A stretch of 64,000 bases of DNA from Burkholderiales bacterium (GCA_030683105.1 JAUXMZ010000003.1:86703-150702); one strand, 5' to 3'. Shown: positions 8,879 to 37,015, numbered from the stretch's first letter. Numbers and translations are program-made. The notes: generated by a model not told the origin, from the letters alone.

Positions 8879-9844
8879 ATGGCGCCGTCCAGGAAATATA
8901 CCAAGCAGGATGTACTCGACACGGCCAAGCGCTGTTCGAACTGGGGCCGCTGGGGTCCCGATGACGAACTCGGCGTGCTGAATTTCATTACGCCCGAAGA
9001 TATTGCCAGCGCCGCTAAACTCGTGCGGCGCGGCAAAGTGTTCGCGCTGGGGCTGGCGCTCGATGCCAAAGGGCCGCAGAGCGGGCTGTTCGGCGGGCGC
9101 TGGAACCCGCTGCATCAGATGCTGGCCACCGGCACCGACGCCGTAGCCGGCGTGCAGGACGAGACGGTGGGCCTGCGCTATGCCGATGATGCCATTCATC
9201 TGCCGACGCAATGCGCGACCCAGTGGGACGCACTCGCGCATGTGTTCCTTGGCGACCAGATGTGGAACGGCTACCCGGCCATACTGGTCGATTCGCGCGG
9301 CGCGAAAAAATGCGGTATCGAGAATTTCCGCGACAAGATGGTCGGCCGCGGCGTCCTGCTCGATGTGGCGCGCTACAAGAATGTCAGTTGCCTGGAGGAC
9401 GGTTATCCGGTGACGATAGACGATCTCGAGAAAACCGCGGCCAAACAGAAGGTCGAGATCAGGCGCGGCGATTTCCTGATCATACGCACCGGCCAGATGG
9501 AAAACTGCCTGCAAAAAGGCGAGTGGGGCGGCTACGCGGGCGGTGACGCGCCCGGCCTCGCTTTCGAGACCTGTGACTGGATTTACAAAAAGGAGATTGC
9601 CGCCATCTGCTCCGATACCTGGGGCATCGAAGTGCGGCCGAACGAGTGTGCGCCCGAGGTCAATCAGCCGTTTCACTGGGTCACCATACCCGCGATCGGC
9701 ATCGTGCACGGCGAGATCATGTACCTGAAAGAGCTGGCCGACGACTGCGCGGCTGACGGCAGATATGAGTTTTTCTTCAGCGCGCCGCCGCTCAACATCA
9801 CCCACGGCACGGGCTCGCCGATCAACCCGCAGGCGATCAAGTAA
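8879..9844 (+). CDS. cyclase family protein (kynurenine formamidase-like fold)
   Basis: 321 aa; N-terminal [15 protein letters not shown] motif and overall resemblance to the putative-cyclase family. Confidence 0.7.
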
Positions 9845-9846
9845 TC

Positions 9847-11148
9847 ATGGCCCGCTACCTCAAGCAGGGCATATCCACCGCCGCCGCCGAGGCCGCCGAT
9901 CTCAAGGTGCGGCAAACCGTCGAGGGCATACTCGCCGACATTGCCAAACGCGGTGATGCGGCGGTGCGCGAGCTCTCGCAGCAATACGACAATTGGTCGC
10001 CGCCTGCCTTCCGCCTGAACCCGGAGCAGATCGCGGCAATCGTCGCCCGGGTTCCGCCCGAGACCATTGCGGACATCACGTTTGCGCAGCTGCAGATCCG
10101 CAATTTCGCCCAGGCGCAGCGGGCTGCCTTGCGCGACATCGAAATCGAGACGCTGCCGGGCGTGATCCTCGGTCACAAGAACATACCGGTGAGCAGCGTC
10201 GGCTGCTACGTGCCGGGCGGGCGCTATCCGATGGTCGCATCGGCGCACATGAGCATAGTCACCGCCAAGGTTGCCGGCGTGCCGCGCATCATCGCCTGCA
10301 CTCCGCCCAACGAAGGCGAGCCGCATCCGGCCACCATCGCCGCCATGCATCTCGCCGGCGCTGACGAAATCCACGTGCTGGGCGGGGTGCAGGCCGTCGC
10401 CGCGATGGCGCTCGGCACCGAGTCGATCGCGCCGGTCGACATGCTGGTCGGACCCGGCAACGCGTATGTCGCCGAGGCCAAGCGGCAGCTGTACGGCCGC
10501 GTTGGCATCGATTTGTTCGCCGGCCCGACCGAGATTCTGATCGTGGCCGACGAGACCGCAGACGTGGTGATGGTGGCCGTCGATCTGCTGGGACAGGCCG
10601 AACACGGCCCGACTTCGCCGGCTATCCTGATTACCACATCGAGCCAGCTTGCCGAGCAGCTTCCGGAAGAGATCGAGCGCCAGTTGAAGGTGCTGCCGAC
10701 CGCTGATGTGGCGTCGCAGGCGTGGCGGGATTATGGGCAGATCATACTGGTCGACAGTCTAGATGAGGCCGTTGTCGAAGCCGACCGGTGCGCCGCGGAG
10801 CACGTCGAGATCCTGACCCGCGAGCCGCGCTTTTTTCTGGAACGCATGCGCAATTACGGCGCCATGTTCCTCGGTCCGGAAACCAACGTTGCGTATGGCG
10901 ACAAGGTGATCGGCACCAACCATACGCTGCCGACCCAGGGCGCGGCGCGTTATACGGGCGGCCTGTGGGTCGGCAAGTTCCTCAAGACCGTCACCTACCA
11001 GGAGTGCACACCCGAAGCCAGCGTCATGGTGGGCGACTACTGTTCGCGCCTGTGCGCGATCGAACGGTTCTGGGGGCACAAGGAACAGGCCGATCTGAGG
11101 CTGCGGATGTACGGCGGCCGGAAGGTGGGGTTACATGGGCCGAAGTAA
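9847..11148 (+). CDS. histidinol dehydrogenase family (HisD-like) paralogue
   Basis: 433 aa; HisD-like sequence throughout ([32 protein letters not shown] region); starts 2 nt after the cyclase-family stop, in a non-histidine context. Confidence 0.8.
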
Positions 11149-11151
11149 CTT

Positions 11152-11186
11152 GTTCAAGGTTCCAAGTTCAAGGTTCCAAGTTCAAC
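11152..11186. repeat. heptamer tandem array GTTCAAG/GTTCCAA x5
   Basis: gttcaag gttccaa gttcaag gttccaa gttcaac; begins 3 nt after the HisD-like stop. Confidence 0.9.
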
Positions 11187-11287
11187 GCTAACGAGCCACG
11201 AACCATGCCGCAAAGCAAATACCCGGAGGGTACGACCCACGACCCACTAGCCACGTTTTTTATTCATGAAACTTCTGCGGATCCCCA

Positions 11288-11632
11288 TTGAATACTGAAA
11301 CACCAGAATCCGACCGCAAGGCGCAGATCGATGCGCTGCTTCTCAAACTCCCGGGCGTCAGCGCACGAAAAATAAACAGCCTTGACGCCTACTTCGTCAA
11401 TGACAAGATGTTCGCCTGCATCAGCGGCAGCGGCGTCGGGCTGCGACTGCCCGCCGCCACCGCGACCGATCTGCAGTTCTCGAGGGACAACGTCGTCCCG
11501 TTTCAGCCCGGCGGTATGGCGAGTTCGAGGGAATGGGTACAGATCGACCGCGCCGATGCGACCGAGTACGGGAAGGATCTCGAGTTGTTTCAGGCCTCGC
11601 TCGAGTTCGTGAAAGCCGCACGGAGCCGTTAG
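11288..11632 (+). CDS. small protein, TfoX N-terminal-domain-like (tentative)
   Basis: 114-aa ORF; the central ..YFVNDKMFACISGSGVGLRLP.. pattern resembles TfoX_N/YjbR-like proteins; assigned from memory only. Confidence 0.45.
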   Translation: MNTETPESDRKAQIDALLLKLPGVSARKINSLDAYFVNDKMFACISGSGVGLRLPAATATDLQFSRDNVVPFQPGGMASSREWVQIDRADATEYGKDLELFQASLEFVKAARSR

Positions 11633-11635
11633 GCT

Positions 11636-11783
11636 GGTTGTTCGTGGTTCGTTGCTCGTTGATCGTAGAATCCTAGCCTCTAACCACTTCCGAATCACCA
11701 ATCACTATTCACGAGTCACGAGCAACGAATCACGAATCACGAATCACGAACCACGAACCACGAACCACGATCCACGTTCAACG
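11636..11783. repeat. paired inverted heptamer arrays (GTTCGTG-type, then CACGAAT/CACGAAC-type)
   Basis: 11636-11669 ggttgttcgtggttcgttgctcgttgatcg, then 11693-11783 aatcaccaatcac..cacgaatcacgaatcacgaatcacgaaccacgaaccacgaacc; the two arms are complementary, so a long imperfect hairpin is possible; fills the whole gap between two + strand genes. Confidence 0.85.
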
Positions 11784-11797
11784 ATTTAAAGCCAGGG

Positions 11798-12436
11798 ATG
11801 ACTATGAGTAATCCAAAAAATGAAACCAGTGCGGCGGACCCTCGCCGCTTCAGGCTGATCCCGCTCGATCAGCTCACACCCGAACAACTCACACTGTCCG
11901 ACGCGATAAAATCCGGTCCGCGCGCCAAGCTCAAGAGTTCGGGCGCGTCCAAGCCGGGACCGCTCGGCGGGCCGTTCAACGTCTGGCTGCGCAGTCCGGG
12001 CATCGGCGACCTGGTGCAACGGCTTGGCGAAGAGATCCGTTTCCGCAGTTCGCTGCCGCCCAAACTCAACGAGCTGGCGATCTTGATCACGGCGCGCCAC
12101 TGGACTTCACAATACGAATGGTTCGCCCATCACAAGCTGGCACTGGAGGGCGGGCTGGCCCCGGCGCTTGCGCAGGCGATTGCGCAAGGCCGTTGCCCGG
12201 CACAGATGGGCGATGACGAAGCGATCGTCTACGATTTCTCGTGCGAGCTGCACGAGAATAAAGAAGTCAGCGATGCCACCTATCAGGCCGCGCTGGACCG
12301 CTTCGGCGAGCGCGGCGTAGTCGACCTCATCTCGGTAAACGGCTTTTACTCGCTGGTGTCGATGTGCCTGAACGTCGACCGTACGCCGCTGCCGGAGGGG
12401 GTGACGCCCCCGCTACCGCCGCTCGGTGAGCGGTGA
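11798..12436 (+). CDS. carboxymuconolactone decarboxylase (AhpD-like) family protein
   Basis: 212 aa; ELAILITARHWTSQYEWFAHH pattern typical of CMD-family proteins. Confidence 0.75.
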   Translation: MTMSNPKNETSAADPRRFRLIPLDQLTPEQLTLSDAIKSGPRAKLKSSGASKPGPLGGPFNVWLRSPGIGDLVQRLGEEIRFRSSLPPKLNELAILITARHWTSQYEWFAHHKLALEGGLAPALAQAIAQGRCPAQMGDDEAIVYDFSCELHENKEVSDATYQAALDRFGERGVVDLISVNGFYSLVSMCLNVDRTPLPEGVTPPLPPLGER

Positions 12437-25885: not shown

Positions 25886-26878
25886 TTAGTGCAGTTTCAG
25901 TCCCGCGGCTTTTACCAGTTGGCGCCACTTGGCGATTTCGGATTTGATATGCGCGCTGAATTGTTCGGGGCTGCTGCCGACAGGGGTGGAGCCGTCGCCG
26001 CTTAACCGCTGCATGACTTCGGGCGATTTCAGCGCGTCGGCCATCGCGGCGGAGAGTTTCGCGACGATGGGGCGGGGCACTTTGGCTGACGTGATCACGC
26101 CGTACCACTGATCGACTTCGTAGCCGGGGACCCCGGCTTCGGACACTGTCGGCAGGTCGGGCACCGCGGGTGAGCGCTTTCCTGCGGTGATGGCGATTGC
26201 ACGCAGGCGGCCGCTCGTCATGTGGGGACGCACGCCGAACAGCGTGCCAAAACCCACCTGGACGTCACCTGCCAGCATGGCGACGGTCACGCCGGCAGTG
26301 CCTTTATATGGCACGTGGACCATTTTGACGCGCGCCATATGATTGAACATTTCGCCGGCGAAGTGCTGCAATCCCCCGGTGCCCGACGAGCCGAAGTTGA
26401 GCTTGTCAGGATTCGCCTTGGCGTAGGTGACCAGTTCCTTGATCGATTTCACCGGGACTGAAGGGTGGTGATAGACCACGTAGAACAGCGACGTCGCCTG
26501 CGTTATGCCCTGCAGGTCGCGGACGAGGTCGTACGGCAGCTTCGGGTTGGTTGCTGAATTGACGACATTTGACGCCGAAATGAGGCAGATCGTGTAGCCG
26601 TCAGGAATTGCCTGTGCGGTGAGTTCCACGCCGATCGCACCCGCCGCGCCGGTGCGGTTGTCCGCGACGACCTGCTGGCCCCATGCATCCGTGAGTTTCT
26701 GGGCGATGGTGCGCGCGGTAGTGTCAGTGCCGGCGCCTGCAGTGAACGGCACGATGAAGCGGATCGGCTTGTTCGGATAATCTTTCGCGATATTGGCTTG
26801 TGCGGCAAACAGCGGCTGGGCAAAACATGCGCTGGCGAAAAATGCGGTCGCCCACAGGGCTTTATGCGGCTGGAACAT
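25886..26878 (-). CDS. Bug-family (TctC-like) substrate-binding protein
   Basis: IRFIVPFTAGAGTD and GSSGTGGLQHF motifs; signal peptide; AGAGGAGGGAG SD. Confidence 0.9.
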   Translation of the reverse strand: MFQPHKALWATAFFASACFAQPLFAAQANIAKDYPNKPIRFIVPFTAGAGTDTTARTIAQKLTDAWGQQVVADNRTGAAGAIGVELTAQAIPDGYTICLISASNVVNSATNPKLPYDLVRDLQGITQATSLFYVVYHHPSVPVKSIKELVTYAKANPDKLNFGSSGTGGLQHFAGEMFNHMARVKMVHVPYKGTAGVTVAMLAGDVQVGFGTLFGVRPHMTSGRLRAIAITAGKRSPAVPDLPTVSEAGVPGYEVDQWYGVITSAKVPRPIVAKLSAAMADALKSPEVMQRLSGDGSTPVGSSPEQFSAHIKSEIAKWRQLVKAAGLKLH

Positions 26879-27940: not shown

Positions 27941-28069
27941 ATGTCCAAAGGCCAGCAACGCAGCAACAAGGAAAAGAAGAAACCCAAAAAACAGAAACAG
28001 CCCGCGGCTGTGGCTGTGACGTTCATCAAAAAGCCCAGGGCAAACGAGCCGATCAAAAACCCATCCTGA
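27941..28069 (+). CDS. small lysine-rich basic protein (42 aa)
   Basis: ATG 27941 with AGGAGA SD 7 nt upstream; MSKGQQRSNKEKKKPKKQKQ..; the upstream part of the 61-aa ORF lacks an SD. Confidence 0.5.
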   Translation: MSKGQQRSNKEKKKPKKQKQPAAVAVTFIKKPRANEPIKNPS

Positions 28070-28090
28070 TATAAACGGGGCCGGCCAGGC

Positions 28091-28113
28091 GCCGACTGCC
28101 CATTCGGCAGCGG
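28091..28113. terminator. GC-rich hairpin between convergent genes
   Basis: gccgactgcc-cattc-ggcagcggc, stem with one bulge, between the small basic protein gene and the RIO-like kinase gene. Confidence 0.35.
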
Positions 28114-28131
28114 CCGCCTGCTGCCTTCGTT

Positions 28132-28983
28132 CTATCGTCCCATGTCCTGTTTGTAACGTTGCCGCGCCGCTTCTTCCTTGAGCGCGGCATCGACTTCCCG
28201 CATGACGCCGGCCACGTCCGCCGGCTTCTCGCTGCGCTTGAAGCGCCCGGTCAGTTCGATCGCCGGGTGTAGCTTGCCACTCTGGTAGAGCGACCAGATC
28301 TCCATGCCGTAGTCGGTGGTCAGCAGTTCGGGCGCATAACGGCCGAAGTAGGCGGCAAGGTTGGCGACATCCCGCTCGAGCATGCTGCAGGCGTGGTTGT
28401 TGCCCGCGGCGTTTACGGCCTGGGGCAGGTCGATGATGACGGGCCCATCGCTGCCGACGAGCACGTTGTATTCGGATAGATCGCCGTGGACGATGCCGGC
28501 GCAGAGCATGAGCACGACCTGAGCGATCAGTGAGCGGTGGTAGTCGCGGGCCTGTTCTGCCGTGAGTTCCAGATCGCTGAGCCTGGGGGCGGCGTCGCCA
28601 TCGTCACCGGTCACCAGTTCCATCAGCAACACGCCCTCGAGGAAGTTATAAGGCCGCGGCACGCGCACGCCGGCGGCGGCGAGCCGGAACAAGGCGTCTA
28701 CCTCGGCGCTTTGCCATGCTTCCTCCTGCGCTTTGCGGCCATAGCGGGTGCCCTTTTCCATGGCGCGGGCGCGGCGGCTGTTCTTGACCTTGCGGCCTTC
28801 GGTGTAATCGGCGCTCTGGCGGAAGCTGCGCTGGTTTGCCTCTTTGTACACCTTCGCGCAGCGGATCTCGTCCCCGCAGCGCACCACGTAGACCATGGCC
28901 TCCTTGCCGCTCGTGAGCTGACGGATGACTGCGTCGACGAGACCATCTTCGACCAGCGGTTCGATTCTCTTGGGGACTTTCAT
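28132..28983 (-). CDS. RIO1-like serine protein kinase (PA4780-type)
   Basis: 283 aa; ..SGKEAMVY..AKVYK.. ATP-site region, IVHGDLSEYNVL catalytic loop, IIDLPQAV metal-binding region. Confidence 0.8.
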   Translation of the reverse strand: MKVPKRIEPLVEDGLVDAVIRQLTSGKEAMVYVVRCGDEIRCAKVYKEANQRSFRQSADYTEGRKVKNSRRARAMEKGTRYGRKAQEEAWQSAEVDALFRLAAAGVRVPRPYNFLEGVLLMELVTGDDGDAAPRLSDLELTAEQARDYHRSLIAQVVLMLCAGIVHGDLSEYNVLVGSDGPVIIDLPQAVNAAGNNHACSMLERDVANLAAYFGRYAPELLTTDYGMEIWSLYQSGKLHPAIELTGRFKRSEKPADVAGVMREVDAALKEEAARQRYKQDMGR

Positions 28984-29024
28984 GGGAGCTTTTGCGGCTT
29001 ATATGGGGGCGCCATGATAGCACC

Positions 29025-29045
29025 CTTGAATCTTGAACCTTGAGC
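29025..29045. repeat. heptamer array CTTGAAT CTTGAAC CTTGAGC (GTTCAAG-type on the minus strand)
   Basis: Begins 6 nt after the stop of the minus-strand amidohydrolase gene, GT strand in the sense orientation. Confidence 0.8.
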
Positions 29046-29051
29046 TCTCGC

Positions 29052-30041
29052 TCAGTCTTCCCCCAGCAGCATGCTCGCGGTCCCGCCACAGATCTGCGCT
29101 TTTTCCGCTGCTGTCAGGCCGGGAGTGGCGTCGAGTGCCGCGATCGGGTCTTCGTAACCCATGTTGAACGGATTGTCGGTGCCGATCACGACATGATCGG
29201 CGCCGGCGATGTTGATCAGATGCCGGGTGGAACGCGGATCGTGCGTGAGCGCATCGAAGTAAAAACGTTTGAACAGATCGTAGGGCGCGCTTTGCGTATC
29301 CACGCTCGCCGCCGGCCTGTTCTTGTGGGCACGGTCGAAGCGGCCGATCTGGTACGGCACGTAACCGCCGCCGTGGGGGATGACGATGCGCAGCGTCTTC
29401 AATTCATCGAGCGCACCGCTCGCCATCAGGTGCGCGGCCATCAGCGTCGAGTCCAGCGGATAGCCTACAGTATTGAACAGCTCGTAGTCGTCCATGCCGC
29501 CTTTGGCGGCGCAGGCATAAGGGTGGGTGAAAATGAAACAGCCGAGCTGCTCTATGGTTTTCAGCACCGGGCGGAAGCGGGGATGCGCAAGCTGCTCGCC
29601 CTCGATCGAGGTGCCCATTTCCACCGCCTTGAATTTATACTCCTTTACCACCCGTTCGAGTTCGGTGATAGCCGCATCGGGATCCTGCATCGGCAGCGTC
29701 GCCATGCCGCGCAGCCGTGCCGGGTATTTCGCCACCATCTGCGCGATGCCGTCGTTGCTGAGGCGCGAGGCCGCAAGCCCCGCTTCAGGGGAAAGCGCGT
29801 AGAAATAAGTCGGCGGCGCTACCGACAGCGCGGATATGTCGATGCTCATGCGATCCATCGCCGCGATCTTGGCGTCGATGTCGTGGAATTCCCGTTCCAT
29901 TTCGGAAAGTTTACCGCGGCGTTCGAAATAGAGTTTGCCGTCGCGCTCGGCGATTTTCATGCCGAAGCGCTGGGGGTCGCGCAGCATTACGGCGATGATG
30001 GTGGGTGGTATGACATGGCTGTGCAGGTCGATGTTGCTCAT
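29052..30041 (-). CDS. amidohydrolase-2 family protein (ACMSD-like decarboxylase/hydrolase)
   Basis: 329 aa; N-terminal IDLHSHVIP metal-binding motif, ..HGGGYVPYQIGR.. and ..GTDNPF.. motifs. Confidence 0.8.
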   Translation of the reverse strand: MSNIDLHSHVIPPTIIAVMLRDPQRFGMKIAERDGKLYFERRGKLSEMEREFHDIDAKIAAMDRMSIDISALSVAPPTYFYALSPEAGLAASRLSNDGIAQMVAKYPARLRGMATLPMQDPDAAITELERVVKEYKFKAVEMGTSIEGEQLAHPRFRPVLKTIEQLGCFIFTHPYACAAKGGMDDYELFNTVGYPLDSTLMAAHLMASGALDELKTLRIVIPHGGGYVPYQIGRFDRAHKNRPAASVDTQSAPYDLFKRFYFDALTHDPRSTRHLINIAGADHVVIGTDNPFNMGYEDPIAALDATPGLTAAEKAQICGGTASMLLGED

Positions 30042-30125
30042 GGTGTGGTCGCGGTTCCGTGTGATTGATAGAGAGTGAAAAAAACAGCCTGAAGCATCGT
30101 GCGCCTGTCGCTGAGCGGAAAGCAG

Positions 30126-30230
30126 AAAGCCGTAAGCCGTAAGCGGAAGTCTCTAAGGTCTTATTCTGCTCACTGCTCACTGCTCACTGCTCACTGCTCA
30201 CTGCTCACTGCTCACTGCTCACTGCTTACC
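30126..30230. repeat. two heptamer arrays: AAGCCGT x3 (30126-30146) and GCTCACT x8 + 1 degenerate (30168-30230)
   Basis: Direct reading; begins 6 nt after the stop of the LigI-like gene (minus strand reads GTGAGCA); lies inside a putative operon. Confidence 0.95.
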
Positions 30231-30236
30231 GTTGCT

Positions 30237-31118
30237 CTATTCGAAGCCGTAGAGTCGCGCGGGATTGGTGACCAGGATTTGTTCGCGTATGGCTGCATCG
30301 GGAACCCACTCGCAGAACAGGTCGAGCAGACCGCCGTCATTGGGCATGGGCCCATCCCACACAGGATGCGGCCAGTTGCTGCCCCACACCAGGCGGTCGG
30401 GACGAGCGGCAACCAGTGCTTCGACCAGCGGTTTAATGTCAGTGAAGTGCGGCGGCCCTGAATCGGACAGGCGGTACCAGCTCGAAATCTTGACCCAGCA
30501 ATCGTTGCGCTGCCGGATGATTCTGAGCAGCGCCTGGAAGCCGGGTGCGTTCACACTGTCGCCGCCGCGCACGCGCCCGAGGTGGTCGAACACGAGTGGC
30601 GTCGGGCAATCGAGAAGCTTTTGTTCCAGCGGCACCAGTTCGGCACACTTGTCGACGTGCAACTGCACATGCCAGCCATAGGGTTTGATTTTGGCGGCAA
30701 TGGCGTCGATCAACTCGGTGCCGCCGTAGCCTTTGACCATGGTGGAGAGCCGCACGCCGCGAATGCCGCCTTTGTGCAGGCGTTCGATTTCCCGGGCCGA
30801 GACGTCGGGTGCAACGCCTGCGACGCCGCGTGCGCGCTTCTGCCCAAGTTCGGCGATGACATCAAGCGACACCGAATTGTCGAAGCCGTAGACGCTGGCG
30901 TTGACCTGGACCGTGCGCGCTATCCCCAGCACCTCGCACATCGCCAGGTAATCGGACAGCGTGGCAAGCGGCGGCGTGTAGCTGCGTGCCGCGACCAGCG
31001 GATAGCGGGACTGGTCCTCAAAAACGTGACAATGGCAGTCGACCACGCCCGCCGGCATCGCGTGTTTGGGCCTGCGCGGCTGCGGGTCGGGCCCCTGGCA
31101 TATTGGTGGTTGAGTCAT
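30237..31118 (-). CDS. amidohydrolase family protein, 2-pyrone-4,6-dicarboxylate lactonase (LigI)-like
   Basis: 293 aa; VVDCHCHVFEDQSRYPL N-terminal motif and TIM-barrel amidohydrolase pattern; start uncertain (ATG 31118 has no SD; ATG 31058 is the alternative). Confidence 0.7.
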   Translation of the reverse strand: MTQPPICQGPDPQPRRPKHAMPAGVVDCHCHVFEDQSRYPLVAARSYTPPLATLSDYLAMCEVLGIARTVQVNASVYGFDNSVSLDVIAELGQKRARGVAGVAPDVSAREIERLHKGGIRGVRLSTMVKGYGGTELIDAIAAKIKPYGWHVQLHVDKCAELVPLEQKLLDCPTPLVFDHLGRVRGGDSVNAPGFQALLRIIRQRNDCWVKISSWYRLSDSGPPHFTDIKPLVEALVAARPDRLVWGSNWPHPVWDGPMPNDGGLLDLFCEWVPDAAIREQILVTNPARLYGFE

Positions 31119-31160
31119 GGTGAGTGAAGGGTGAAGGGTGAAGGGTGAAGAGTGAAGGTT
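31119..31160. repeat. heptamer array GGTGAGT GAAGGGT x3 GAAGAGT GAAGGTT
   Basis: Direct reading; abuts the annotated start codon of the LigI-like gene. Confidence 0.9.
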
Positions 31161-31207
31161 GCCGATGGTTTTCGCTTTACTCCTAACTCTTCACGCCTCA
31201 CCTTGTT

Positions 31208-31996
31208 TTAGTCGCGGTAGGAAGGATCGGCGCGATCGAGCTTTCTTAACAGCGCCGGCCATTCGAGCAAACCGAAGCGGCGCCGCGTGCCGGGCAGCAT
31301 CAGGTGATTGGTATATTGCACCACTTCGTTTGGCGGCAGCTGCAGTTCGGTATTGCACGACAGCGCCATCACCTGCAGCTGACAGGCGCGTTCCAGGCGG
31401 TACATGTTGTTGAAGCACTCGGGTATGCTCGCGCCCACCGTGAGCAGCCCGTGGTTGCGCAGCACCATGGCTTCGCGGTTGCCCAGGTTGCGTACCAGGC
31501 GCTCGCGTTCGTCCAGGCGCAGGGCAACGCCTTCGTAATCGTGATAAGCGATGTCAGTGAAGCGCATCGAGGACTGGGCGATCGGCATGATTCCGCATTT
31601 CATGGCGGACACCGCCATGCCGGCCAGCGTGTGGGTATGGATGATGCAATCCACGTCATGGCGCGCGGCATGCACCGCGCTGTGAATCACGTAGCCGGCC
31701 TGGTTGATGCCGTAAGCGGTGGCGTTGAACAGCACGTTGCCGTCGATGTCGACCCGGATCATGCTCGAGGCGGTCATTTCCTCGTAGAGCATGCCGTAGG
31801 GATTGATCAGGAATTCATTGGCGGTGCCTGGCACGCGTGCCGAGATGTGATTGGCGACCATTTCGACCATGCCGAACTCATGCATTAGCCTGTAGCATGC
31901 GGCAAGATCGACCCGTACCTCCCACTCCTCCTTGCTGACCTGATCGCGAACCGGCTTGTTTATTTTAATCTCTGGCGCGTTCATGGTTTTCCTCAC
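31208..31996 (-). CDS. class II aldolase/adducin family protein
   Basis: 262 aa; ..NHISARVPG.. and HSAVHAARHDVDCIIHTHT metal-binding histidine pattern. Confidence 0.85.
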   Translation of the reverse strand: MRKTMNAPEIKINKPVRDQVSKEEWEVRVDLAACYRLMHEFGMVEMVANHISARVPGTANEFLINPYGMLYEEMTASSMIRVDIDGNVLFNATAYGINQAGYVIHSAVHAARHDVDCIIHTHTLAGMAVSAMKCGIMPIAQSSMRFTDIAYHDYEGVALRLDERERLVRNLGNREAMVLRNHGLLTVGASIPECFNNMYRLERACQLQVMALSCNTELQLPPNEVVQYTNHLMLPGTRRRFGLLEWPALLRKLDRADPSYRD

Positions 31997-32009
31997 CTGC
32001 TAGGGACTC

Positions 32010-33128
32010 TTACTCAAATGTGACGTTCGGCGCCGGGCGCGATCTTTCAAGCGCATAGCGCACGAGCGCGGCGAAGCGGTAGATCGCATGCACGAACTTG
32101 CCATAGGGCAGGGTCAGGAACAGCGCCAGCACGATGCCCAGGTGTATGGCGAGCAGCATGCCCATCGCGGCCGTGTCGCGCAGGAACAACAGCGCGAGGC
32201 CGGTGAGGCTGGTCAAAAACAGCAGCACGAGGAACCCGACATCCATGCCTAATTGTTTCGGTTCGGCGGTTTCGGGATCGCTGCGGCTTTTGATCCACAG
32301 TAGTCCCGCCGGTCCGATCAGCAGCCCGATGCCGCCGACGGTGCCGAACACCACCGGCAGGCTCGTAAACGCATAGGGCGCGGGCCAGCCGAACACATAA
32401 TGGTAGATCGTTCCGGTCGCGGTGGCGGCGAAGCACAGCATGAAACCGTAAAAGGTGAAATGATGGAACCAGCGCCGCGCATTAGAGGGATATTCACTCG
32501 GGTAGGTGCAGCCTTCGCCGCCGCCGTCCAGATACTTCAGGCGCAGCACATCCCAGGTCGCCTGCCCGAGTGCTACCGGACGCGCAAAATCCGCCAGGCT
32601 CTCGCCCATGTCCCGCCAGAAACGGACGAACCCGACAATGAACGCCACCAGCACGTACAGCGCGACGGCGCCAAAGGTCAGCACCATCACGTTGTGGGGG
32701 ATGATCTTGTAGAACGAGCCTTCGCCGGTGTGGGCGGAAAACAGGATTGCGGGATCCTGGAAATAGAAGGTCAGCAGCATGAACAGCGCAAAACTGACCG
32801 CGGTGATCAGGGACACCGCCAGCCCGTTGCGCGAGAAGAGATCGCCGAGGAAACCCGGCCACGCATAATTGCGGTAAGTTTCGCCGCGCAATTCGGCCAG
32901 GTGCCGCGGCAGGTTCACGTTGAATTCGTGCGGCGGCGCGTACTGGCAGGCGTAGAAACACGAACCGCAGTTGTGGCAGAGGTTGGCCAGGTAATGCAGG
33001 TCCGGTTCGGAAAAAGTGAGCCGCTGCTCCATCGCGGGAAACACGGCGCAATAACTCTCGCAGTAGCGGCAGGCGTTGCACACCTGCATGTTGAACTCGA
33101 CCTGCTTGATCAGATCACTGGCGGACAT
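32010..33128 (-). CDS. tcuB: tricarballylate utilization 4Fe-4S membrane protein TcuB-like
   Basis: Start moved to ATG 33128 (MSASDLIKQVEFNMQVCNACRYCESYC..CHNCGSCFYAC two Fe-S cysteine clusters), followed by about 6 TM helices; overlaps the tcuA stop by 14 nt. Confidence 0.8.
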   Translation of the reverse strand: MSASDLIKQVEFNMQVCNACRYCESYCAVFPAMEQRLTFSEPDLHYLANLCHNCGSCFYACQYAPPHEFNVNLPRHLAELRGETYRNYAWPGFLGDLFSRNGLAVSLITAVSFALFMLLTFYFQDPAILFSAHTGEGSFYKIIPHNVMVLTFGAVALYVLVAFIVGFVRFWRDMGESLADFARPVALGQATWDVLRLKYLDGGGEGCTYPSEYPSNARRWFHHFTFYGFMLCFAATATGTIYHYVFGWPAPYAFTSLPVVFGTVGGIGLLIGPAGLLWIKSRSDPETAEPKQLGMDVGFLVLLFLTSLTGLALLFLRDTAAMGMLLAIHLGIVLALFLTLPYGKFVHAIYRFAALVRYALERSRPAPNVTFE

Positions 33129-34512
33129 GGCGCGCTGCCTCCTTGCCTGCCGCGCGCCCGAATGCCGCGCCGATGGCCATGCCGATGCCGCCGAGATAGC
33201 CCTTGCCGAGAATGTTGCCGGCCATGATTTCACCGGCTGCAAAAATGTTGGTGGAAGGTTTGTCGTCCTGCATGATCATCCTTGCGTGTTGGTCGACCAC
33301 GACGCCGAGGTAAGTGAAGGTGATGCCGGGCCGTAGCGGATAGCCGAAAAACGGCGGGGTATCGATGGTGCGCGCCCAGTGGGTCTTGGGCGGGGTGACG
33401 CCGTCGGTTGCGCAGTCATCGAGCACGGCGTGATTGAATGTGCCGGGCCGCACCGCGGCGTTGTAGCGGTCGACCGTTTGCTGGACCGTGGCCGGATCGA
33501 GCTTGAACGCCGCGGCAAGTTCCTTGATCGAATTGGCCCGGACCGGGGGAAACACCGGGGGCATGAATTTGCCCACGGCCTTCGAGTCGATGATTGAATA
33601 AGCGATCTGGTCGTCCTGCAGGGCCACCAGCCGGCCCCAGATGGCATAGCGCTTGGGCCAGAAATCCTCGCCCTCGTCGTAAAACCGCTCGCCATGGGTG
33701 TTGACGACGATGCCCAGCGAGACGGCATCCACGCGGGTGATGATGCCGCCGTCGAACTTGGGCGAGCGCGCGTCGATCGCCACGCAATGGCCCTGGGTCG
33801 GATCGCCGATGGCCTTGGCGCCGCTGTCGAGCAGCGCGCGCAGGATCACGCCTTTGTTGTACGGGGTGCCGCGCACGATGAAGTTGTCCGCCGGCGGGCC
33901 CCAGGCTTCTCTGAGCCAGGCCAGGTTGGATTGAAAACCGCCCGACGCGGCCACCATCGTTCTGGCGCGGACCTGGTGTGTTGCGCCGGCATACTTGAAC
34001 ACCGCCGAACGGAATTCCCCGTCCTGTATATCAAGTTCACATACTTCGGCGTCATACAGGATCTTGATGCCGAGCCGCTCGGCGGAGTGATAGAAAGCAT
34101 TCAGCAGCGCCTTGCCCCCGCCGAGGAAGAACGAATTGGTGCGCGACAGGTGCAGCGTGCCGCCCAGCGACGGCTGGAAGCGCACGCCGTGCTCGATCAG
34201 CCAGGGCAGGCAGGCCACCGATTCGCGGATGGTCTGTCGTGCCAGTGCTTCGTTGGTCTGGCCGCCGGTGACTTTGAGCACGTCCTGCCAGTACTCCTCT
34301 TCGGGATAGGCTTCAGTCAGCATGTGTATGGGCGCATCATGCATACAGCGCAGATTGCGCGTATGACGGCTGTTGCCGCCGCGAAACGCCTTGGGCGCGG
34401 ACTCCAGTATCAGCACTGAAGCGCCGGCTTCCCTGGCGGTGAGGGCGGCGCACAGCGCGGCATTGCCGCCGCCTATGACCAGCACATCGTAGGTTTGTAT
34501 GAGATCTATCAT
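33115..34512 (-). CDS. tcuA: FAD-dependent tricarballylate dehydrogenase TcuA-like flavoprotein
   Basis: 465 aa; YDVLVIGGGNAALCAAL FAD motif, RGGNSRHTRN motif, fumarate-reductase/succinate-dehydrogenase flavoprotein-like. Confidence 0.85.
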   Translation of the reverse strand: MIDLIQTYDVLVIGGGNAALCAALTAREAGASVLILESAPKAFRGGNSRHTRNLRCMHDAPIHMLTEAYPEEEYWQDVLKVTGGQTNEALARQTIRESVACLPWLIEHGVRFQPSLGGTLHLSRTNSFFLGGGKALLNAFYHSAERLGIKILYDAEVCELDIQDGEFRSAVFKYAGATHQVRARTMVAASGGFQSNLAWLREAWGPPADNFIVRGTPYNKGVILRALLDSGAKAIGDPTQGHCVAIDARSPKFDGGIITRVDAVSLGIVVNTHGERFYDEGEDFWPKRYAIWGRLVALQDDQIAYSIIDSKAVGKFMPPVFPPVRANSIKELAAAFKLDPATVQQTVDRYNAAVRPGTFNHAVLDDCATDGVTPPKTHWARTIDTPPFFGYPLRPGITFTYLGVVVDQHARMIMQDDKPSTNIFAAGEIMAGNILGKGYLGGIGMAIGAAFGRAAGKEAARHVRQ

Positions 34513-34537
34513 GGCCGGTATACGAAGTTAATCAGGT

Positions 34538-35350
34538 TTAAGCAGGTTTTGCGGGGGCTGAAACGATAGTGTAGTTTACCGCGCGACCGATACCGCGCCG
34601 GAAACCTTCCAGGCGCAGCACTTGTCCGGGAGCGACATTCGCAAGGCTGACCTCGGGGCCGAAGTCACGGATCATCTGCACGTGCTGTTCCGGAAAACGA
34701 TAGGGATCGACTTCAATCAGCACGTTTTCGAACCAGGTCTCGCGCGCGAGTTCCCCCAGCGCGGCGGGGTTCTTTGCCGCCAGCATGTCGATTTCCGATT
34801 GTTCCACGGTCACATGGTCGATGCCCTGGCGGGCGACATCTGCGACCACGGCGCCCAGTTCGGCTATGCTCATCGGTTGCGCCGGGTTCTTGCGCCCGAA
34901 TTCGTACATGACACGCAGGCCTGCGCGCTGCAGGTGGTCGATCCAGTGCCGGCGCTCGTCATCGGAGAGCGAGATGTAGTTTTCGGAAAGTTCCAGCGCC
35001 GGCACCGCCAGCCGTTTCAGGTGGGCGATCATGCCGTCGACCTCGTTGCGCTGCCAGGCATATTCGAACAGGATGCCGCCGGCAAACGGCATGACGCCGG
35101 CGTCAAGATACAGTCGCGTGGTGCGCGCCACCGTTGCCGCGGGAATAAGCAGTGCGTTCATGGCGTAAATTTTCGCGTAATCGATGTAACCGGCTGCGAC
35201 CTCGAGCAGGTCGCTGATGCCGCGCTCGCCTCCGGTCCAGCCGGATTCATCCGGGCCGAAGTCGATCATGGAGGTAATGCCGCGGCGCCGCGGCTTGGCG
35301 CCGCGCGGCGGAAGTTCAAATGCTGGACCGGGAGATTTTTGCGGACCCAT
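34538..35350 (-). CDS. phosphosulfolactate synthase (ComA) family protein
   Basis: 270 aa; KPRRRGITSMIDFG start of the ComA-type TIM barrel and overall family-like pattern (from memory). Confidence 0.6.
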   Translation of the reverse strand: MGPQKSPGPAFELPPRGAKPRRRGITSMIDFGPDESGWTGGERGISDLLEVAAGYIDYAKIYAMNALLIPAATVARTTRLYLDAGVMPFAGGILFEYAWQRNEVDGMIAHLKRLAVPALELSENYISLSDDERRHWIDHLQRAGLRVMYEFGRKNPAQPMSIAELGAVVADVARQGIDHVTVEQSEIDMLAAKNPAALGELARETWFENVLIEVDPYRFPEQHVQMIRDFGPEVSLANVAPGQVLRLEGFRRGIGRAVNYTIVSAPAKPA

Positions 35351-35520
35351 ACCTTAACTGTTCGTGTGCCGGGCAGCAAACCGACAACGGGTCGCCGCAG
35401 ATGCAATTAAATCGCGATTGGAAGATCTGTGACGCGGGCCGGGCGCTGAGCGGACGCGCCAAACCGCATTAATTATAAGCGAGCAGGGCCTGCCGCGCAG
35501 ACTAAAGTCCATATCATGAA

Positions 35521-35979
35521 TCAATGCAATGTCTTGGCGTCAGACCGCGGGCCGGTCTCGGTGCGGGCGGGCGTGGCGGACGGGCATGGCGAGGCGTGAT
35601 GCGCGACCATGCGCCAGCCGCGCTCGGTGCGCAGGTAGATATTGGTCGCAACCATGGGATTGCGGGGACGCGCCTCGCCTGAGACGGTGATTTGTTCATA
35701 AACGCTATGCACCGACAGCATCATGCCGTTCAGGAATTGCTGCTCGCGCAGATGAAAGCTCAGGGTTTGGCCGCCGGCGAAAATTTCCCGCCATGACTCG
35801 CGTATCTGCTCAACACCGCTGATGCGTGCGCCGTGCGGGTGGATGCAGAAAATTTCGTCGTCGTCGGCCCATACCGCCATCATCCCGTCCAGATCGGACT
35901 TGGTAAACGCCTCATAAAACGCCGTTTCGGCATCCTGCGGGGTGGGGAAAAGCGCTTTTTTCAATTGGAGCGTCTCCAT
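35521..35979 (-). CDS. NTF2-like (SnoaL/DUF4440-type) protein
   Basis: Start moved to ATG 35979; AFYEAF..DLDGMMAVWADDDEIFCIHPHG..G...I..SW pattern; 20 nt after the waaF stop. Confidence 0.7.
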   Translation of the reverse strand: METLQLKKALFPTPQDAETAFYEAFTKSDLDGMMAVWADDDEIFCIHPHGARISGVEQIRESWREIFAGGQTLSFHLREQQFLNGMMLSVHSVYEQITVSGEARPRNPMVATNIYLRTERGWRMVAHHASPCPSATPARTETGPRSDAKTLH

Positions 35980-35998
35980 GGGTCCGCAATACACTGCA

Positions 35999-37015
35999 TC
36001 ATGGGCGCATTTTATCAAAATCGACGGCTGCGAAAACCCGGTCCGGCACAAGTTGCATCATGCAATTGAAATGCCCGAGCGGGCATACGCGCTTGAAGCA
36101 CGGGCTGCATGGCAGATCGAGCTTGAGTATCGTGGCCGAGGCCGATAACGGGGGGGTAAATCCCGGGCTGCTCGAACCATACAGCGCGATAAGTGGCTTG
36201 CCCAGGGCCGCGGCGACGTGCATCAGCCCGGAATCGTTGCTGACGGCGAGTTGCGCCGAGGCCAGCAGATCGATCGCCTCATCGAGCGTGGTGTTGCCGC
36301 ACAGGTTGGCGCATGATCCGTTGCTCAGCGCGGCGATGTCAGCGCCGAGCGCGGCGTCCTTGGCGGAACCGATGAGCCATACTTCGCAGCCGCGGGATCG
36401 CAGACGTTGCGCAAGTTCGGCGAAATACTGCGCCGGCCAGCGTTTGGCCGGCCCGTATTCGGCACCGGGGCAAAGTGCGACAACGGGCTGCCGCGGTTCG
36501 AGTGCAAACTTGCGCAGAACGGCAAGCCGCTTGGTTTCAGCGACTTCCAGATGTGCGGCGGGCAGGGGGCGCATGAGCGGCTCGCCGGCCGCGCCCGCAA
36601 GCGCGGCGAAGCGCTCCACCATCAGCGGCAGTGCCTGCTTGTCCAGGCGGCGCGCGTCGTTCAGCAATCCCCAGCGCAGTTCACCGAGATAGCCAGTGCG
36701 CAGCGGTATTCCGGCAAAAAAAGGCACCAGTGCCGATTTGAAGGAATTGGGAAGCACGATGGCCTGGTCATAGCGTTCTTCCGCAAGCGTCAATCCCAGC
36801 CGGCGGCGCTCGCCCAGCCGCAGCTCGCCGTGGCCATAGGGGTTGGCAATGGCGCGCCTGACTTCGGGCATGCGCGCGAGCAGTGGCAGCGTCCACCCCG
36901 GGGCCAGCACGTCGAGCGCGAGTTGCGGATGTTTCTGGTGCAACAGCGCGAACAGAGGTTGCGCCAGCACGGTGTCGCCGACCCACGACGGGCCTACGAC
37001 AAGCACTTTTGTCAT
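35999..37015 (-). CDS. waaF: ADP-heptose:LPS heptosyltransferase II
   Basis: 338 aa; VLVVGPSWVGDTVLAQPLF N-terminus, GT9 family pattern, SNDSGLMHVAAALG motif. Confidence 0.9.
   Translation of the reverse strand: MTKVLVVGPSWVGDTVLAQPLFALLHQKHPQLALDVLAPGWTLPLLARMPEVRRAIANPYGHGELRLGERRRLGLTLAEERYDQAIVLPNSFKSALVPFFAGIPLRTGYLGELRWGLLNDARRLDKQALPLMVERFAALAGAAGEPLMRPLPAAHLEVAETKRLAVLRKFALEPRQPVVALCPGAEYGPAKRWPAQYFAELAQRLRSRGCEVWLIGSAKDAALGADIAALSNGSCANLCGNTTLDEAIDLLASAQLAVSNDSGLMHVAAALGKPLIALYGSSSPGFTPPLSASATILKLDLPCSPCFKRVCPLGHFNCMMQLVPDRVFAAVDFDKMRP

Follow-up and report, generated by a model that had tools for sequence, protein, structure and literature searches.

The analyzed stretch of DNA (the window) comprises 64,000 nucleotides from a Burkholderiales bacterium (GCA_030683105.1 JAUXMZ010000003.1:86703-150702). 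It contains a minus-strand gene cluster with the following features:

35472..35513, minus strand: conserved promoter-like element preceding the ComA-like gene (six related spacers aligned)
34538..35350, minus strand: ComA-like gene, divergent PF02679 TIM-barrel enzyme, 270 aa (PF02679, 162.5 bits)
33115..34512, minus strand: tcuA, FAD-dependent flavoprotein of the tricarballylate dehydrogenase type, 465 aa (NF006130, TIGR02485)
32010..33128, minus strand: tcuB, 4Fe-4S membrane partner of TcuA, 372 aa (TIGR02484)
31208..31996, minus strand: class II aldolase/adducin-fold gene of the PRK07044 subfamily (PF00596, PRK07044)
30237..31118, minus strand: LigI-like lactonase-type amidohydrolase, accessory operon member (Amidohydro_2, PDB LigI)
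30114..30242, no strand: synteny breakpoint with two heptanucleotide tandem arrays (collinearity, Tandem Repeats Finder)
29052..30041, minus strand: ACMSD-like amidohydrolase (Amidohydro_2), outside the conserved cluster (173 bits to human ACMSD)

The initial annotation had described six co-directional genes with short gaps or overlaps. All six open reading frames were recovered with their direction and coordinates, but the gaps from the ComA-like to the ACMSD-like gene (25, -14, 25, 89, and 195 nt by ORF coordinates) include a 195-nt spacer before the sixth gene. The 14-nt overlap of tcuA and tcuB proved exact on direct reading of the sequence, with the tcuB ATG at 33128 behind an AAGGAGG Shine-Dalgarno sequence and the tcuA TGA at 33117-33115. 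All six family assignments held in profile and PDB matching. As had been noted, neither tcuC nor tcuR adjoins the cluster, which is flanked in the window by SnoaL/waaF/ilvE upstream and by RIO1/DUF3014/TctC downstream of the ACMSD-like (Amh2) gene; both genes are absent from the related loci as well.

TcuA scored 723 bits against NF006130 (cut-off 369) and 650 bits against TIGR02485 (cut-off 372.55). TcuB scored 442 bits against TIGR02484 (cut-off 246.6) and 521.6 bits against NF011607, just under the cut-off of 524. The aldolase-fold gene, which likely starts at the ATG at 31984 (258 aa), matched PF00596 with 175 bits and PRK07044, "aldolase II superfamily protein," with 349 bits (cut-off 207). 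Equivalog-type models for FucA, AraD, MtnB, OtnC, and PhtC all remained far under their cut-offs, and the best PDB match, 3OCR, is a structure without an assigned function. The family call for this gene stands, but the aldol cleavage initially assigned to it is just one of several chemistries of the fold. The lactonase matched Amidohydro_2 with 171 bits and LigI in the PDB with 177 bits, indicative of homology only. Its sole NCBIfam match was the 4-sulfomuconolactone hydrolase model NF042924, at 208 bits (cut-off 500), and the locus contains no LigJ, LigK, LigU, or ring-cleavage genes. The low equivalog score and the lack of pathway partners in the locus speak against assigning this protein as either the LigI 2-pyrone-4,6-dicarboxylate hydrolase or 4-sulfomuconolactone hydrolase.

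The ComA-like call withstood the Pfam profile search (PF02679, 162.5 bits, cut-off 25.2, profile positions 2-240 of 243) but not the ComA equivalog model TIGR03849 (112.4 bits, cut-off 280). The protein matched PDB 1QWG with E=1e-18, and its significant fold matches were exclusively ComA structures, with a weak predicted model (mean pLDDT 60.5). We aligned it with reference ComAs that are characterized or supported by context (M. jannaschii, Xanthobacter XcbB, Brevibacillus YitD-type, Nocardioides, and Mycolicibacterium). It retains D40, K43, E79, E103, E133, K137, E168, E205, and R240. Across 67 ComA-like sequences, R170 is replaced by Ser or Cys, G107 by Asn, Q212 by His, and GWGT45-48 by YAMN. 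Arg170 is invariant in the reference ComAs, and its loss from a protein that keeps the presumed catalytic core would be consistent with a substrate lacking the phosphate of PEP. The subfamily is discrete, comprising only a handful of 50%-identity clusters at an identity of at least 38%. No ComB/ComC/ComDE or XcbC-E genes were found in the window or in the examined neighborhoods of 80 related loci, and no coenzyme M or sulfolactate partner genes accompany the ComA-like gene. For contrast, ComA and ComB are adjacent in Brevibacillus (YitD-type), and XcbB lies beside an argininosuccinate-lyase-like gene in Xanthobacter.

Neighborhood comparison covered 28 species-level relatives, all uncultured Burkholderiales with waaF-ComA synteny, within the wider set of 80 related loci. 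The order waaF, SnoaL-like gene, ComA-like gene, TcuA-family flavoprotein gene, class II aldolase-fold gene is kept in these relatives. A TcuA-family gene directly follows the ComA-like gene in 27 of the 28 species, with gaps of mostly 26-76 nt, and the aldolase-fold gene is present in 26 of them at 81-92% identity. The lactonase, initially taken as a regular cluster member, keeps its family assignment and its place in a five-gene set in the window, but with an occurrence in 4/28 species it is accessory. All five genes are under purifying selection (dN/dS = 0.06-0.2). The six genes do not form one co-conserved cluster as had been suggested, given that the ACMSD-like gene occurs in 0/28 species. 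The true unit is an operon of three to five genes, vertically inherited in an uncultured Burkholderiales lineage, with waaF/SnoaL on one side and, in the ancestral arrangement, a YheT-like hydrolase and phosphoglucomutase on the other. Three enzymes make up the core: a divergent member of the ComA family, an FAD dehydrogenase of the TcuA family, and a class II aldolase-fold enzyme of the adducin type; the LigI-like lactonase is optional. One locus (L100) retains TcuAB, the aldolase-fold gene, and the lactonase without the ComA-like gene, and another (L001) retains ComA-FAD500 (see below) without the aldolase-fold gene, so parts of the operon can function separately. In L005/L009 the aldolase is a pseudogene. 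No description of a module of ComA-like, TcuA, and aldolase-fold genes was found in the literature searched.

The ACMSD-like gene is a foreign neighbor of this operon, set there by rearrangement or an assembly join. Synteny with every relative stops at window position 30242 (collinearity ends at 30242 and 30238 with L006 and L008, respectively), coinciding with the 195-nt spacer and its arrays of AGCCGAA (x5) and CTGCTCA (x8.7, perfect). The gene is missing from all 80 related loci and, after the lactonase, from the same-species contig L098. Its native context in relatives is CSD-Amh2-RIO1 and Amh2-FKBP-DUF3014-TctC, and RIO1, DUF3014, and TctC, its companions there, are also its downstream neighbors in the window. 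Because the gene belongs to this Amh2-RIO1-DUF3014-TctC block, the decarboxylation step earlier attributed to it is without basis. Uptake through a nearby Bug receptor is not supported either, as the receptor at 25886-26878 lies in the same foreign block.

The flavoprotein slot of the operon is occupied in two ways. In 25 of the 28 relatives it holds a 500-amino acid TcuA paralog (FAD500) without TcuB, which shares 32% identity with the TcuA of the window and scores 582 bits against NF006130, above the cut-off, and 248 bits against TIGR02485, under the cut-off. In the window and its nearest relatives the same slot holds a canonical TcuA-TcuB pair (2 of the 28 species; further loci of this type are L098, L099, and L100). 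The two flavoproteins were never seen together in one locus among the 28 species and these three loci. In a phylogenetic tree, TcuAB-type loci form one subclade among FAD500-type outgroups, and the DNA of L007 matches the window on either side of 32000-34578, not inside. In the small subclade of the window, the TcuA paralog without an adjacent tcuB was replaced in place by canonical TcuA/TcuB. The lactonase is present in all six TcuAB-type loci, and the ComA-like gene (dN/dS = 0.08) is still under strong purifying selection following the swap. By analogy to Salmonella TcuAB, electrons from the pair would enter the quinone pool of the membrane. The closest TcuAB proteins outside the locus (76% and 72% identity) are encoded in a PrpF-TctC-TcuA-TcuB arrangement resembling a tricarboxylate locus.

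We infer a promoter role for the element at 35472..35513, which precedes the ComA-like gene. Its CTTATAAT block, in which TATAAT spans 35477-35472, and its ATGGACTTTAGTCTGCGC block are the sole invariant blocks across six aligned spacers from TcuAB-type and FAD500-type loci alike. A consensus scan identified no -35/-10 pair, and there was no match to an Rfam family.

The ComA-like/TcuA-like pairing is ancient. It recurs in Paracoccus versutus (with a 4-nt overlap), Hyphomicrobium, and three alphaproteobacterial MAGs, and in Mongoliimonas the two genes are separated by about 6 kb. The counterpart of the operon in P. versutus is EQ718_RS17805-17780. In seven species, a type I sulfatase gene encoding a CVPTR motif lies directly upstream of the ComA-like gene (gap 0-27 nt), its stop overlapping or abutting the ComA-like start in several of them; a further species has the order ComA-TctC-sulfatase. 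Genes for an SsuA/NrtA-family ABC transporter follow ComA-TcuA-like in Paracoccus, Hyphomicrobium, and the MAG loci L071 and L074. In Mongoliimonas such genes accompany the TcuA-like gene, likewise some 6 kb away from ComA, and a PF03601 (putative sulfate-exporter-family) gene is located two genes upstream of the ComA-like gene. ComA-like genes also lie beside PrpD and PrpF (Bradyrhizobium, Hyphomicrobium, and Paracoccus) or beside a set of CaiB-type CoA-transferase, acyl-CoA dehydrogenase, and MaoC, which we take to resemble itaconate clusters. TctC tricarboxylate receptors are frequent neighbors. The aldolase-fold gene likewise occurs independently 3' of tcuA-tcuB in Usitatibacter and Variovorax (53-56% identity), in Variovorax together with tcuAB, a D-2-hydroxyacid dehydrogenase, and PrpD.

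We tentatively propose, as one candidate that falls short of being probable, that the operon oxidizes and then desulfonates a sulfo-substituted succinate-type acid. An anionic acid of this type bearing a sulfo group would be taken up; candidate substrates are sulfosuccinate, the succinate isostere 3-sulfopropanoate, and the tricarballylate isostere 2-(sulfomethyl)succinate. The flavoprotein would desaturate a -CH2-CH- unit, as TcuA does on tricarballylate. The ComA-like enzyme would run its Mg-enolate chemistry in the lyase direction, or add water at the sulfo-bearing carbon, and free sulfite; these two steps could occur in either order. The aldolase-fold enzyme would then decarboxylate the keto or hydroxy acid so formed or cleave it at a C-C bond, and the lactonase, where present, would open a lactone form. 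In the part of a published discussion that concerns 3-sulfopropanoate, a thesis is cited for a proposed route from 3-sulfopropanoate via sulfoacrylate to sulfolactate, and bacterial degradation of the compound is there described as otherwise unreported.

The suggestion of a sulfonated acid, already made in the initial annotation, gains circumstantial support from the type I sulfatases, SsuA-family ABC transporters, and putative sulfate-exporter-family gene beside ComA-like genes elsewhere. A further link to sulfur is that all characterized PF02679 enzymes known to us add sulfite to PEP. Against the suggestion, the Burkholderiales loci themselves lack genes for sulfite export, for a sulfite dehydrogenase, and for sulfonate transport, and the operon itself encodes neither a regulator nor a transporter. 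Moreover, neither the binding proteins of the NitT/TauT family nor the enzymes of the sulfatase family are confined to sulfur compounds. The ComA-like contexts without a sulfur gene, which resemble itaconate, methylcitrate, or tricarboxylate catabolism, also speak against it, as do the missing genes in L100 and L001 and the agreement of TcuA and TcuB with tricarballylate equivalog models. It is conceivable, if rather unlikely, that the operon instead degrades a sulfur-free substituted di- or tricarboxylate (a relative of tricarballylate, itaconate, methylsuccinate, or aconitate) or its lactone. The flavoprotein would then make a double bond, the ComA-like enzyme would serve as hydratase or lyase, by Mg-enolate chemistry, for a 2-substituted acrylate (the carbon analog of PEP), and the aldolase-fold enzyme would decarboxylate or cleave the product. 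Tricarballylate is, to our knowledge, the only known TcuA substrate, and the PrpD/PrpF, CoA-transferase/acyl-CoA dehydrogenase/MaoC, and TctC neighbors of ComA-like genes point in the same direction, together with the Variovorax gene set, the loss of the arginine invariant in true ComAs, and the lactonase, whose closest match is LigI, an enzyme acting on a tricarboxylate lactone. Set against this are the sulfatase genes immediately upstream of, and in several species overlapping or abutting, ComA-like genes, and the SsuA-family transporter and PF03601 exporter of other contexts; in addition, we know of no PF02679 enzyme with a sulfur-free substrate.

TcuA/TcuB could be an ordinary tricarballylate dehydrogenase derived from a tricarballylate locus, with the ComA-like, aldolase-fold, and lactonase genes as unrelated neighbors in a variable region downstream of waaF. 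The scores above equivalog cut-offs (for TcuB by TIGR02484), the PrpF-TctC-TcuA-TcuB context of the nearest outside homologs, and the variable content 3' of the ComA-like gene, with the lactonase present or absent, the L005/L009 pseudogene, and no ComA-like gene in L100, would all fit. We nevertheless regard this as improbable, because TcuAB sits exactly in the slot that 25 other species use for another TcuA-family gene, the two never adjoining, with 25-nt gaps on both sides and neither tcuC nor tcuR, because two unrelated lineages also have tcuAB followed by the aldolase-fold gene, and because all five genes are under purifying selection. The earlier idea that TcuAB was recruited outside the known tricarballylate route is supported insofar as the pair is embedded in a different conserved pathway, where it takes the slot of another TcuA-family dehydrogenase between ComA-like and aldolase-fold genes. 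It appears highly improbable that the cluster serves to make sulfolactate, coenzyme M, or another sulfonate, with the ComA-like protein as a true phosphosulfolactate synthase. PF02679 membership, Lys137, the conserved acidic residues, and an N-terminal PxRxxKPRxxGxT motif are common to this protein and true ComAs; yet its TIGR03849 score is 112 against 280 bits, it shares no more than about 27-33% identity with Xanthobacter XcbB and M. jannaschii ComA, Arg170, Gly107, and Gln212 are substituted, 0/80 loci have ComB, ComC, ComDE, or XcbC-E nearby although a true YitD-type ComA adjoins ComB, and its neighbors are catabolic and transport genes.

Among known systems, SuyAB frees sulfite from 3-sulfolactate, the reaction that a phosphate-free reverse ComA would carry out, and serves here as a working analogy only; there is no homology to SuyAB. 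The same holds for 4-sulfomuconolactone hydrolase, the single NCBIfam match of a lactonase that, at 208 versus 500 bits, is equally LigI-like. Alphaproteobacterial ComA-like genes share CaiB-type CoA-transferase, acyl-CoA dehydrogenase, MaoC hydratase, PrpD, and PrpF neighbors with itaconate and methylcitrate sets (Ict/Ich/Ccl; PrpD/PrpF), but none of these genes is in the operon of the window, and no citramalyl-CoA lyase was seen. With ComA of Methanocaldococcus jannaschii, XcbB of Xanthobacter autotrophicus Py2, and YitD of Bacillus, the ComA-like protein has in common the PF02679 TIM-barrel, the retained residues given above, GG74-75, S105, N227, E237, and the N-terminal motif, and these shared residues would indicate the same enolate-type addition/elimination chemistry. 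It differs from them in R170, G107, Q212, and GWGT45-48, carries insertions, and remains under the equivalog cut-off; its genes never adjoin ComB/ComC/Xcb genes and instead pair with those for TcuA-like flavoproteins, for sulfatases, and for transporters of the TctC or SsuA type. ComA and XcbB add sulfite to PEP. Similarly to Salmonella enterica tcuRABC, tcuA and tcuB of the window are adjacent and overlapping, with TcuA, and TcuB by TIGR02484, above equivalog cut-offs, and the pair presumably catalyzes FAD-dependent desaturation of a -CH2-CH(COO-)- unit, with TcuB re-oxidizing the flavin. A classical tcuRABC tricarballylate locus is ruled out, since the TcuC transporter and TcuR regulator are lacking and the pair is embedded in another conserved operon, in the slot of a TcuA paralog in 25/28 species and flanked by ComA-like and aldolase-fold genes that the tricarballylate route does not need.

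Here we observed that the six minus-strand ORFs predicted between 29052 and 35350 are present at those positions and run in the same direction, and profile searches upheld every family name proposed in the initial annotation. The genes are listed from first to sixth.

34538-35350, minus strand: ComA-like protein; PF02679, 162.5 bits
33115-34512, minus strand: TcuA; NF006130, 723 bits (cut-off 369), and TIGR02485, 650 bits (cut-off 372.55)
32010-33128, minus strand: TcuB; TIGR02484, 442 bits (cut-off 246.6)
31208-31996, minus strand: class II aldolase/adducin protein (aldolase-fold); PF00596, 175 bits, and PRK07044, 349 bits (cut-off 207)
30237-31118, minus strand: lactonase-type amidohydrolase; Amidohydro_2
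29052-30041, minus strand: ACMSD-like amidohydrolase (Amh2); Amidohydro_2

The nearest solved structures of the two amidohydrolases are LigI for the lactonase-type protein (177 bits) and human ACMSD for the ACMSD-like protein (173 bits). The tcuA and tcuB genes overlap by exactly 14 nt, as had been noted, AAGGAGG lies ahead of the tcuB ATG, and the aldolase-fold gene probably begins with the ATG at 31984. The description of all genes as separated by short gaps holds for the first four intervals (25, -14, 25 and 89 nt in ORF coordinates), but the sixth gene follows only after 195 nt, a spacer filled with heptanucleotide tandem arrays. The cluster is flanked upstream by ilvE, waaF and a SnoaL-like gene, and downstream by genes for a PA4780-type RIO1 kinase, DUF3014 and a TctC receptor.

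The ComA-like protein, a TcuA-family dehydrogenase and the aldolase-fold enzyme are encoded by a conserved operon. We collected 80 loci with a ComA-like protein from species-representative genomes and mapped all window proteins onto them; synteny counts rest on the 28 loci of one Burkholderiales lineage that have at least 4.5 kb of downstream sequence. A TcuA-family gene directly follows the ComA-like gene in 27 of these 28 loci, mostly after 26 to 76 nt, and corresponds to FAD500, a 500-aa FAD_binding_2 paralogue, in 25 and to TcuAB in 2. The aldolase-fold gene is present in 26/28 loci and the lactonase in 4/28. The ACMSD-like gene occurs in none of the 28, so the proposal that all six genes form one conserved unit had to be abandoned.

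In this Burkholderiales lineage, represented by MAGs only, the gene order is ilvE, zf-CHCC, waaF, SnoaL, ComA-like, FAD500, aldolase-fold, (lactonase), YheT-like hydrolase and phosphoglucomutase (PGM). [quoted passage not shown] The genes for the YheT-like hydrolase and PGM were also rejected and are read as housekeeping flanks. In 13 relatives (L013-L015, L017, L019 and others), a gene for a small MamF_MmsF-family membrane protein (~114-134 aa) lies on the opposite strand between the aldolase-fold and YheT-like hydrolase genes. In the related loci L005 (11469-11722) and L009, two fragments (57 and 23 residues) that separate FAD500 from the lactonase are all that is left of the aldolase-fold gene, an apparent pseudogene. 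L100, from a related population, carries waaF, SnoaL, TcuA, TcuB, aldolase-fold and lactonase genes at 7130-12049 without a ComA-like gene, and L001, a locus from the same metagenome, carries ComA-FAD500 without an aldolase-fold gene.

The ACMSD-like gene is a foreign neighbor of the five-gene operon. Collinearity with the related loci L006 and L008 ends at window positions 30242 and 30238, just beyond the lactonase stop codon. Contig L098, which is of the window's own species (protein identity 96-99%), continues here into the YheT-like hydrolase and PGM genes, both absent from the whole 64-kb window. Close homologs of the ACMSD-like protein (95% and 87% identity) reside in the neighborhoods CSD-Amh2-RIO1...DUF3014 and Amh2-FKBP-DUF3014-TctC, the latter on another contig of the MAG that contains L008. 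Based on the end of synteny and this native context, the window therefore joins two blocks at the heptamer-repeat spacer. Synteny with all relatives ends at this junction (30114-30242), which reflects either a rearrangement specific to the strain or a join made in assembling the MAG contig. The nearby Bug receptor (25886-26878), which had been put forward as a candidate for uptake, is part of the foreign block.

Tandem arrays of 7-nt units occupy many spacers of the window (at 4311, 11691, 12457, 15026, 15493, 17421, 24035, 24461, 29024, 30114, 30166, 31124, 48237 and 54242). The unit sequences differ and include GTTCAAG x16.7, CGAATCA x11 and CTGCTCA x8.7 (perfect), among others. The arrays look like a genome-wide feature of this organism.

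FAD500 is a paralogue of TcuA: its NF006130 score (582 bits) exceeds the cut-off, but its TIGR02485 score (248 bits) falls short. It shares 32% identity with the TcuA of the window and has no TcuB beside it. The DNA of L007, a locus with a ComA-like gene 92% identical to that of the window, aligns at 34578-36997 (ComA-like gene) and 31201-31992 (aldolase-fold gene) with no match to 32000-34578, so that the exchange coincides precisely with the flavoprotein slot. A neighbor-joining tree built on IlvE+WaaF+ComA+aldolase places the window, L006 and L008, all with TcuAB, in one subclade with the FAD500-bearing L007; the remaining 26 taxa all carry FAD500. Three further TcuAB-type loci come from metagenomic contigs (L098, L099, a relative of L006, and L100). 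FAD500 and TcuAB occur together in none of the loci compared, and the lactonase is present in 6/6 TcuAB-type loci. The nearest TcuAB proteins elsewhere (76% and 72% identity) are encoded in PrpF-TctC-TcuA-TcuB loci, a plausible donor type.

All five genes show dN/dS values of 0.06-0.2 between TcuAB-type genomes. The ComA-like gene has a value of 0.08, both there and in comparison with the FAD500-type L007, and is therefore not a decaying remnant. Mapping onto flavocytochrome c3 places T-F-T and Tyr in both TcuA and FAD500 at the positions that we take to be His504/His505 and Arg545 of fumarate reductases, in an alignment that is weak around Arg402.

The ComA-like protein is 100% identical to a protein from a MAG labeled Burkholderiales bacterium. 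Its assignment in HMM searches stands at the level of PF02679, but not at that of the ComA equivalog model (112 bits versus a cut-off of 280). ComA structures were the sole significant fold matches of an AlphaFold model that is itself poor (mean pLDDT 60.5, from a shallow alignment of low diversity). Identity to M. jannaschii ComA and Xanthobacter XcbB is only about 27-33%. A search of 1.84 billion cluster representatives recovered 496 clusters in the whole family, of which only a handful are at least 38% identical to the ComA-like protein before identity drops to about 31-35%. In an alignment of 67 ComA-like sequences and five ComAs that are true or supported by context, D40, K43, GG74-75, E79, E103, S105, E133, K137, E168, E205, N227, E237 and R240 are common to both groups, as is an N-terminal PxRxxKPRxxGxT motif. 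By contrast, R170, which is invariant in true ComAs, is replaced by Ser or Cys in the ComA-like proteins, G107 by Asn, Q212 by His and GWGT45-48 by YAMN, and the ComA-like proteins contain three insertions. These comparisons suggest the same enolate-type chemistry acting on what would be a different substrate. Phosphosulfolactate synthase is probably a misnomer for this subfamily, as is tricarballylate dehydrogenase for FAD500. Public gene calls start the ComA-like protein at Met28 (243 aa; window 35270-35350, L098/L099 7244-7975); true ComAs share the conserved residues 14-32 (PxRxxKPRxxGxTxxxDxG), which makes the 270-aa ORF preferable.

The operon includes no regulator gene. Upstream of the ComA-like gene, at window 35472-35513 in the SnoaL/ComA spacer, six genomes share an invariant CTTATAAT preceded by a near-palindromic conserved block, GGACTTTAGTC, and both are kept in TcuAB-type and FAD500-type genomes alike. 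These blocks suggest that transcription starts before the ComA-like gene, and the element may be a putative promoter with an operator. A consensus scan found no full sigma-70 promoter, and all terminator-like matches among the five genes lie within coding sequence; co-transcription is therefore argued from spacing and conservation only. An Rfam scan of 28000-36200 identified no riboswitch or RNA element, apart from a spurious MIR529 match on a heptamer array.

Related genes occur in several other contexts. On Paracoccus versutus pTAV3, a ComA-like and a TcuA-like gene overlap by 4 nt and are followed by an NrtA/SsuA-family ABC transporter, with TctCBA, three PrpD genes and PrpF around the locus. 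The order ComA, TcuA-like, SsuA-like recurs in Hyphomicrobium and the MAG loci L071 and L074, with PrpD and/or PrpF ahead; Bradyrhizobium plasmids carry TctC ... PrpD-PrpF-ComA-like. In Mongoliimonas, a PF03601 exporter-family gene, PrpD, ComA-like and TrmB follow in order, with the TcuA-like gene and the genes of an ABC transporter some 6 kb from the ComA-like gene. In seven betaproteobacterial species (L053, L077-L080, L082, L083), a type I sulfatase with the formylglycine motif CVPTR, cytoplasmic and without an obvious signal peptide, is encoded directly ahead of the ComA-like gene, with a gap of 0-27 nt. Its stop overlaps or abuts the ComA-like start in several of these species, and a divergent TctC gene lies upstream. 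Of the two ComA-like paralogues in the MAG CA_2019_TPBF_129, one is syntenic (L047) and the other stands in the order ComA-TctC-sulfatase (L049). Genes for a CaiB-type CoA-transferase, an acyl-CoA dehydrogenase and a MaoC hydratase adjoin the ComA-like gene in eight alphaproteobacterial loci, and some others there include a PcaD-like lactonase, a 2OG oxygenase and an LLM oxidoreductase. In SAR11, a study described a TTT transporter paralogue flanked by two genes of the ComA-like subfamily. Aldolase-fold homologs 53-60% identical to that of the window follow tcuA-tcuB in Usitatibacter (then TctC and an Ldh_2 dehydrogenase) and in Variovorax sp. RA8 (then a D-2-hydroxyacid dehydrogenase and PrpD); they accompany TctC and a 2-hydroxyacid dehydrogenase in Comamonas and an amidohydrolase in Paraburkholderia.

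TcuA desaturates tricarballylate, and its flavin is re-oxidized via the membrane by TcuB; ComA attaches sulfite to C3 of PEP by way of a Mg-stabilized enolate; and the class II aldolase fold also includes decarboxylases (OtnC, PhtC) and a dehydratase (MtnB). The dehydrogenase step of the operon is filled by FAD500 or by TcuAB, and we infer that the substrate is a succinate-type acid. Based on the sulfatase, SsuA-type and exporter contexts, a sulfo substituent is the best single guess, which we hold tentatively. 3-Sulfopropanoate, or a sulfosuccinate-type analog, would then be oxidized to an enoate by TcuAB or FAD500. The ComA-like enzyme would split the C-S bond, from sulfolactate after hydration or by addition of water at the sulfo-bearing carbon, and the aldolase-fold enzyme would decarboxylate or cleave the product. 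A route from 3-sulfopropanoate via sulfoacrylate to sulfolactate was proposed from physiology in a thesis, as relayed by a citing paper, the only one found to discuss this compound, which states that there is otherwise no report of bacterial 3-sulfopropanoate degradation. The sulfo scheme has to contend with the lack of sulfite-handling genes in the Burkholderiales loci, with ComA-like contexts several of which resemble sulfur-free itaconate or tricarboxylate catabolism, and with parts that are able to stand alone (L100, L001). A sulfur-free substituted di- or tricarboxylate is a serious if somewhat unlikely alternative substrate.

To our knowledge, tricarballylate is the sole substrate established for TcuA-family enzymes. 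That the operon simply serves tricarballylate use, beside unrelated neighbors, is improbable. All PF02679 enzymes known to us build sulfonates, in the synthesis of coenzyme M and sulfolactate. Unlike true ComAs, which have such partner genes nearby, no ComA-like gene has ComB, ComC, ComDE or XcbC-E near it, and a biosynthetic phosphosulfolactate synthase is very improbable. Returning to the sulfo scheme, its full form, in which the divergent ComA branch acts as a reverse, sulfite-releasing lyase or hydratase-desulfonase and together with a TcuA-type flavoprotein constitutes an unrecognized aerobic desulfonation pathway for succinate-like sulfonates (e.g. 3-sulfopropanoate via sulfoacrylate), is speculative and, taken as a whole, unlikely.

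If true, this pathway would occur widely, in Burkholderiales of fresh water and soil, Paracoccus, Hyphomicrobium, Bradyrhizobium and marine alphaproteobacteria, with an interchangeable flavoprotein step served by a TcuA paralogue without adjacent tcuB or by membrane-coupled TcuAB. Organosulfonates make up a large pool in both freshwater and marine environments, and a ComA-like enzyme acting as a desulfonating lyase would be of high interest. Dozens of uncultured Proteobacteria, and several cultured ones, share the conserved ComA-like/TcuA-like pair, which points to an as yet unassigned pathway for anionic organic acids, possibly organosulfonates. Cultured carriers of related genes include Paracoccus versutus, Variovorax sp. 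RA8 and peanut-nodule Bradyrhizobium strains. The in-place exchange of FAD500 for TcuAB provides a clean natural experiment on how one dehydrogenation step can be coupled to different electron acceptors.

In conclusion, our analysis corrects the automatic annotation of the ComA-like subfamily and of the 500-aa TcuA paralogue. Literature searches found no publication tying PF02679 to TcuA-family genes or covering the ComA-like subfamily, and searches for tricarballylate dehydrogenase, alone or with class II aldolase, found no description of the module. Compared with the literature found, the enzyme families are all known, and what is new is the way they are combined, together with the conserved pairing and the swap of one paralogue for another in place.
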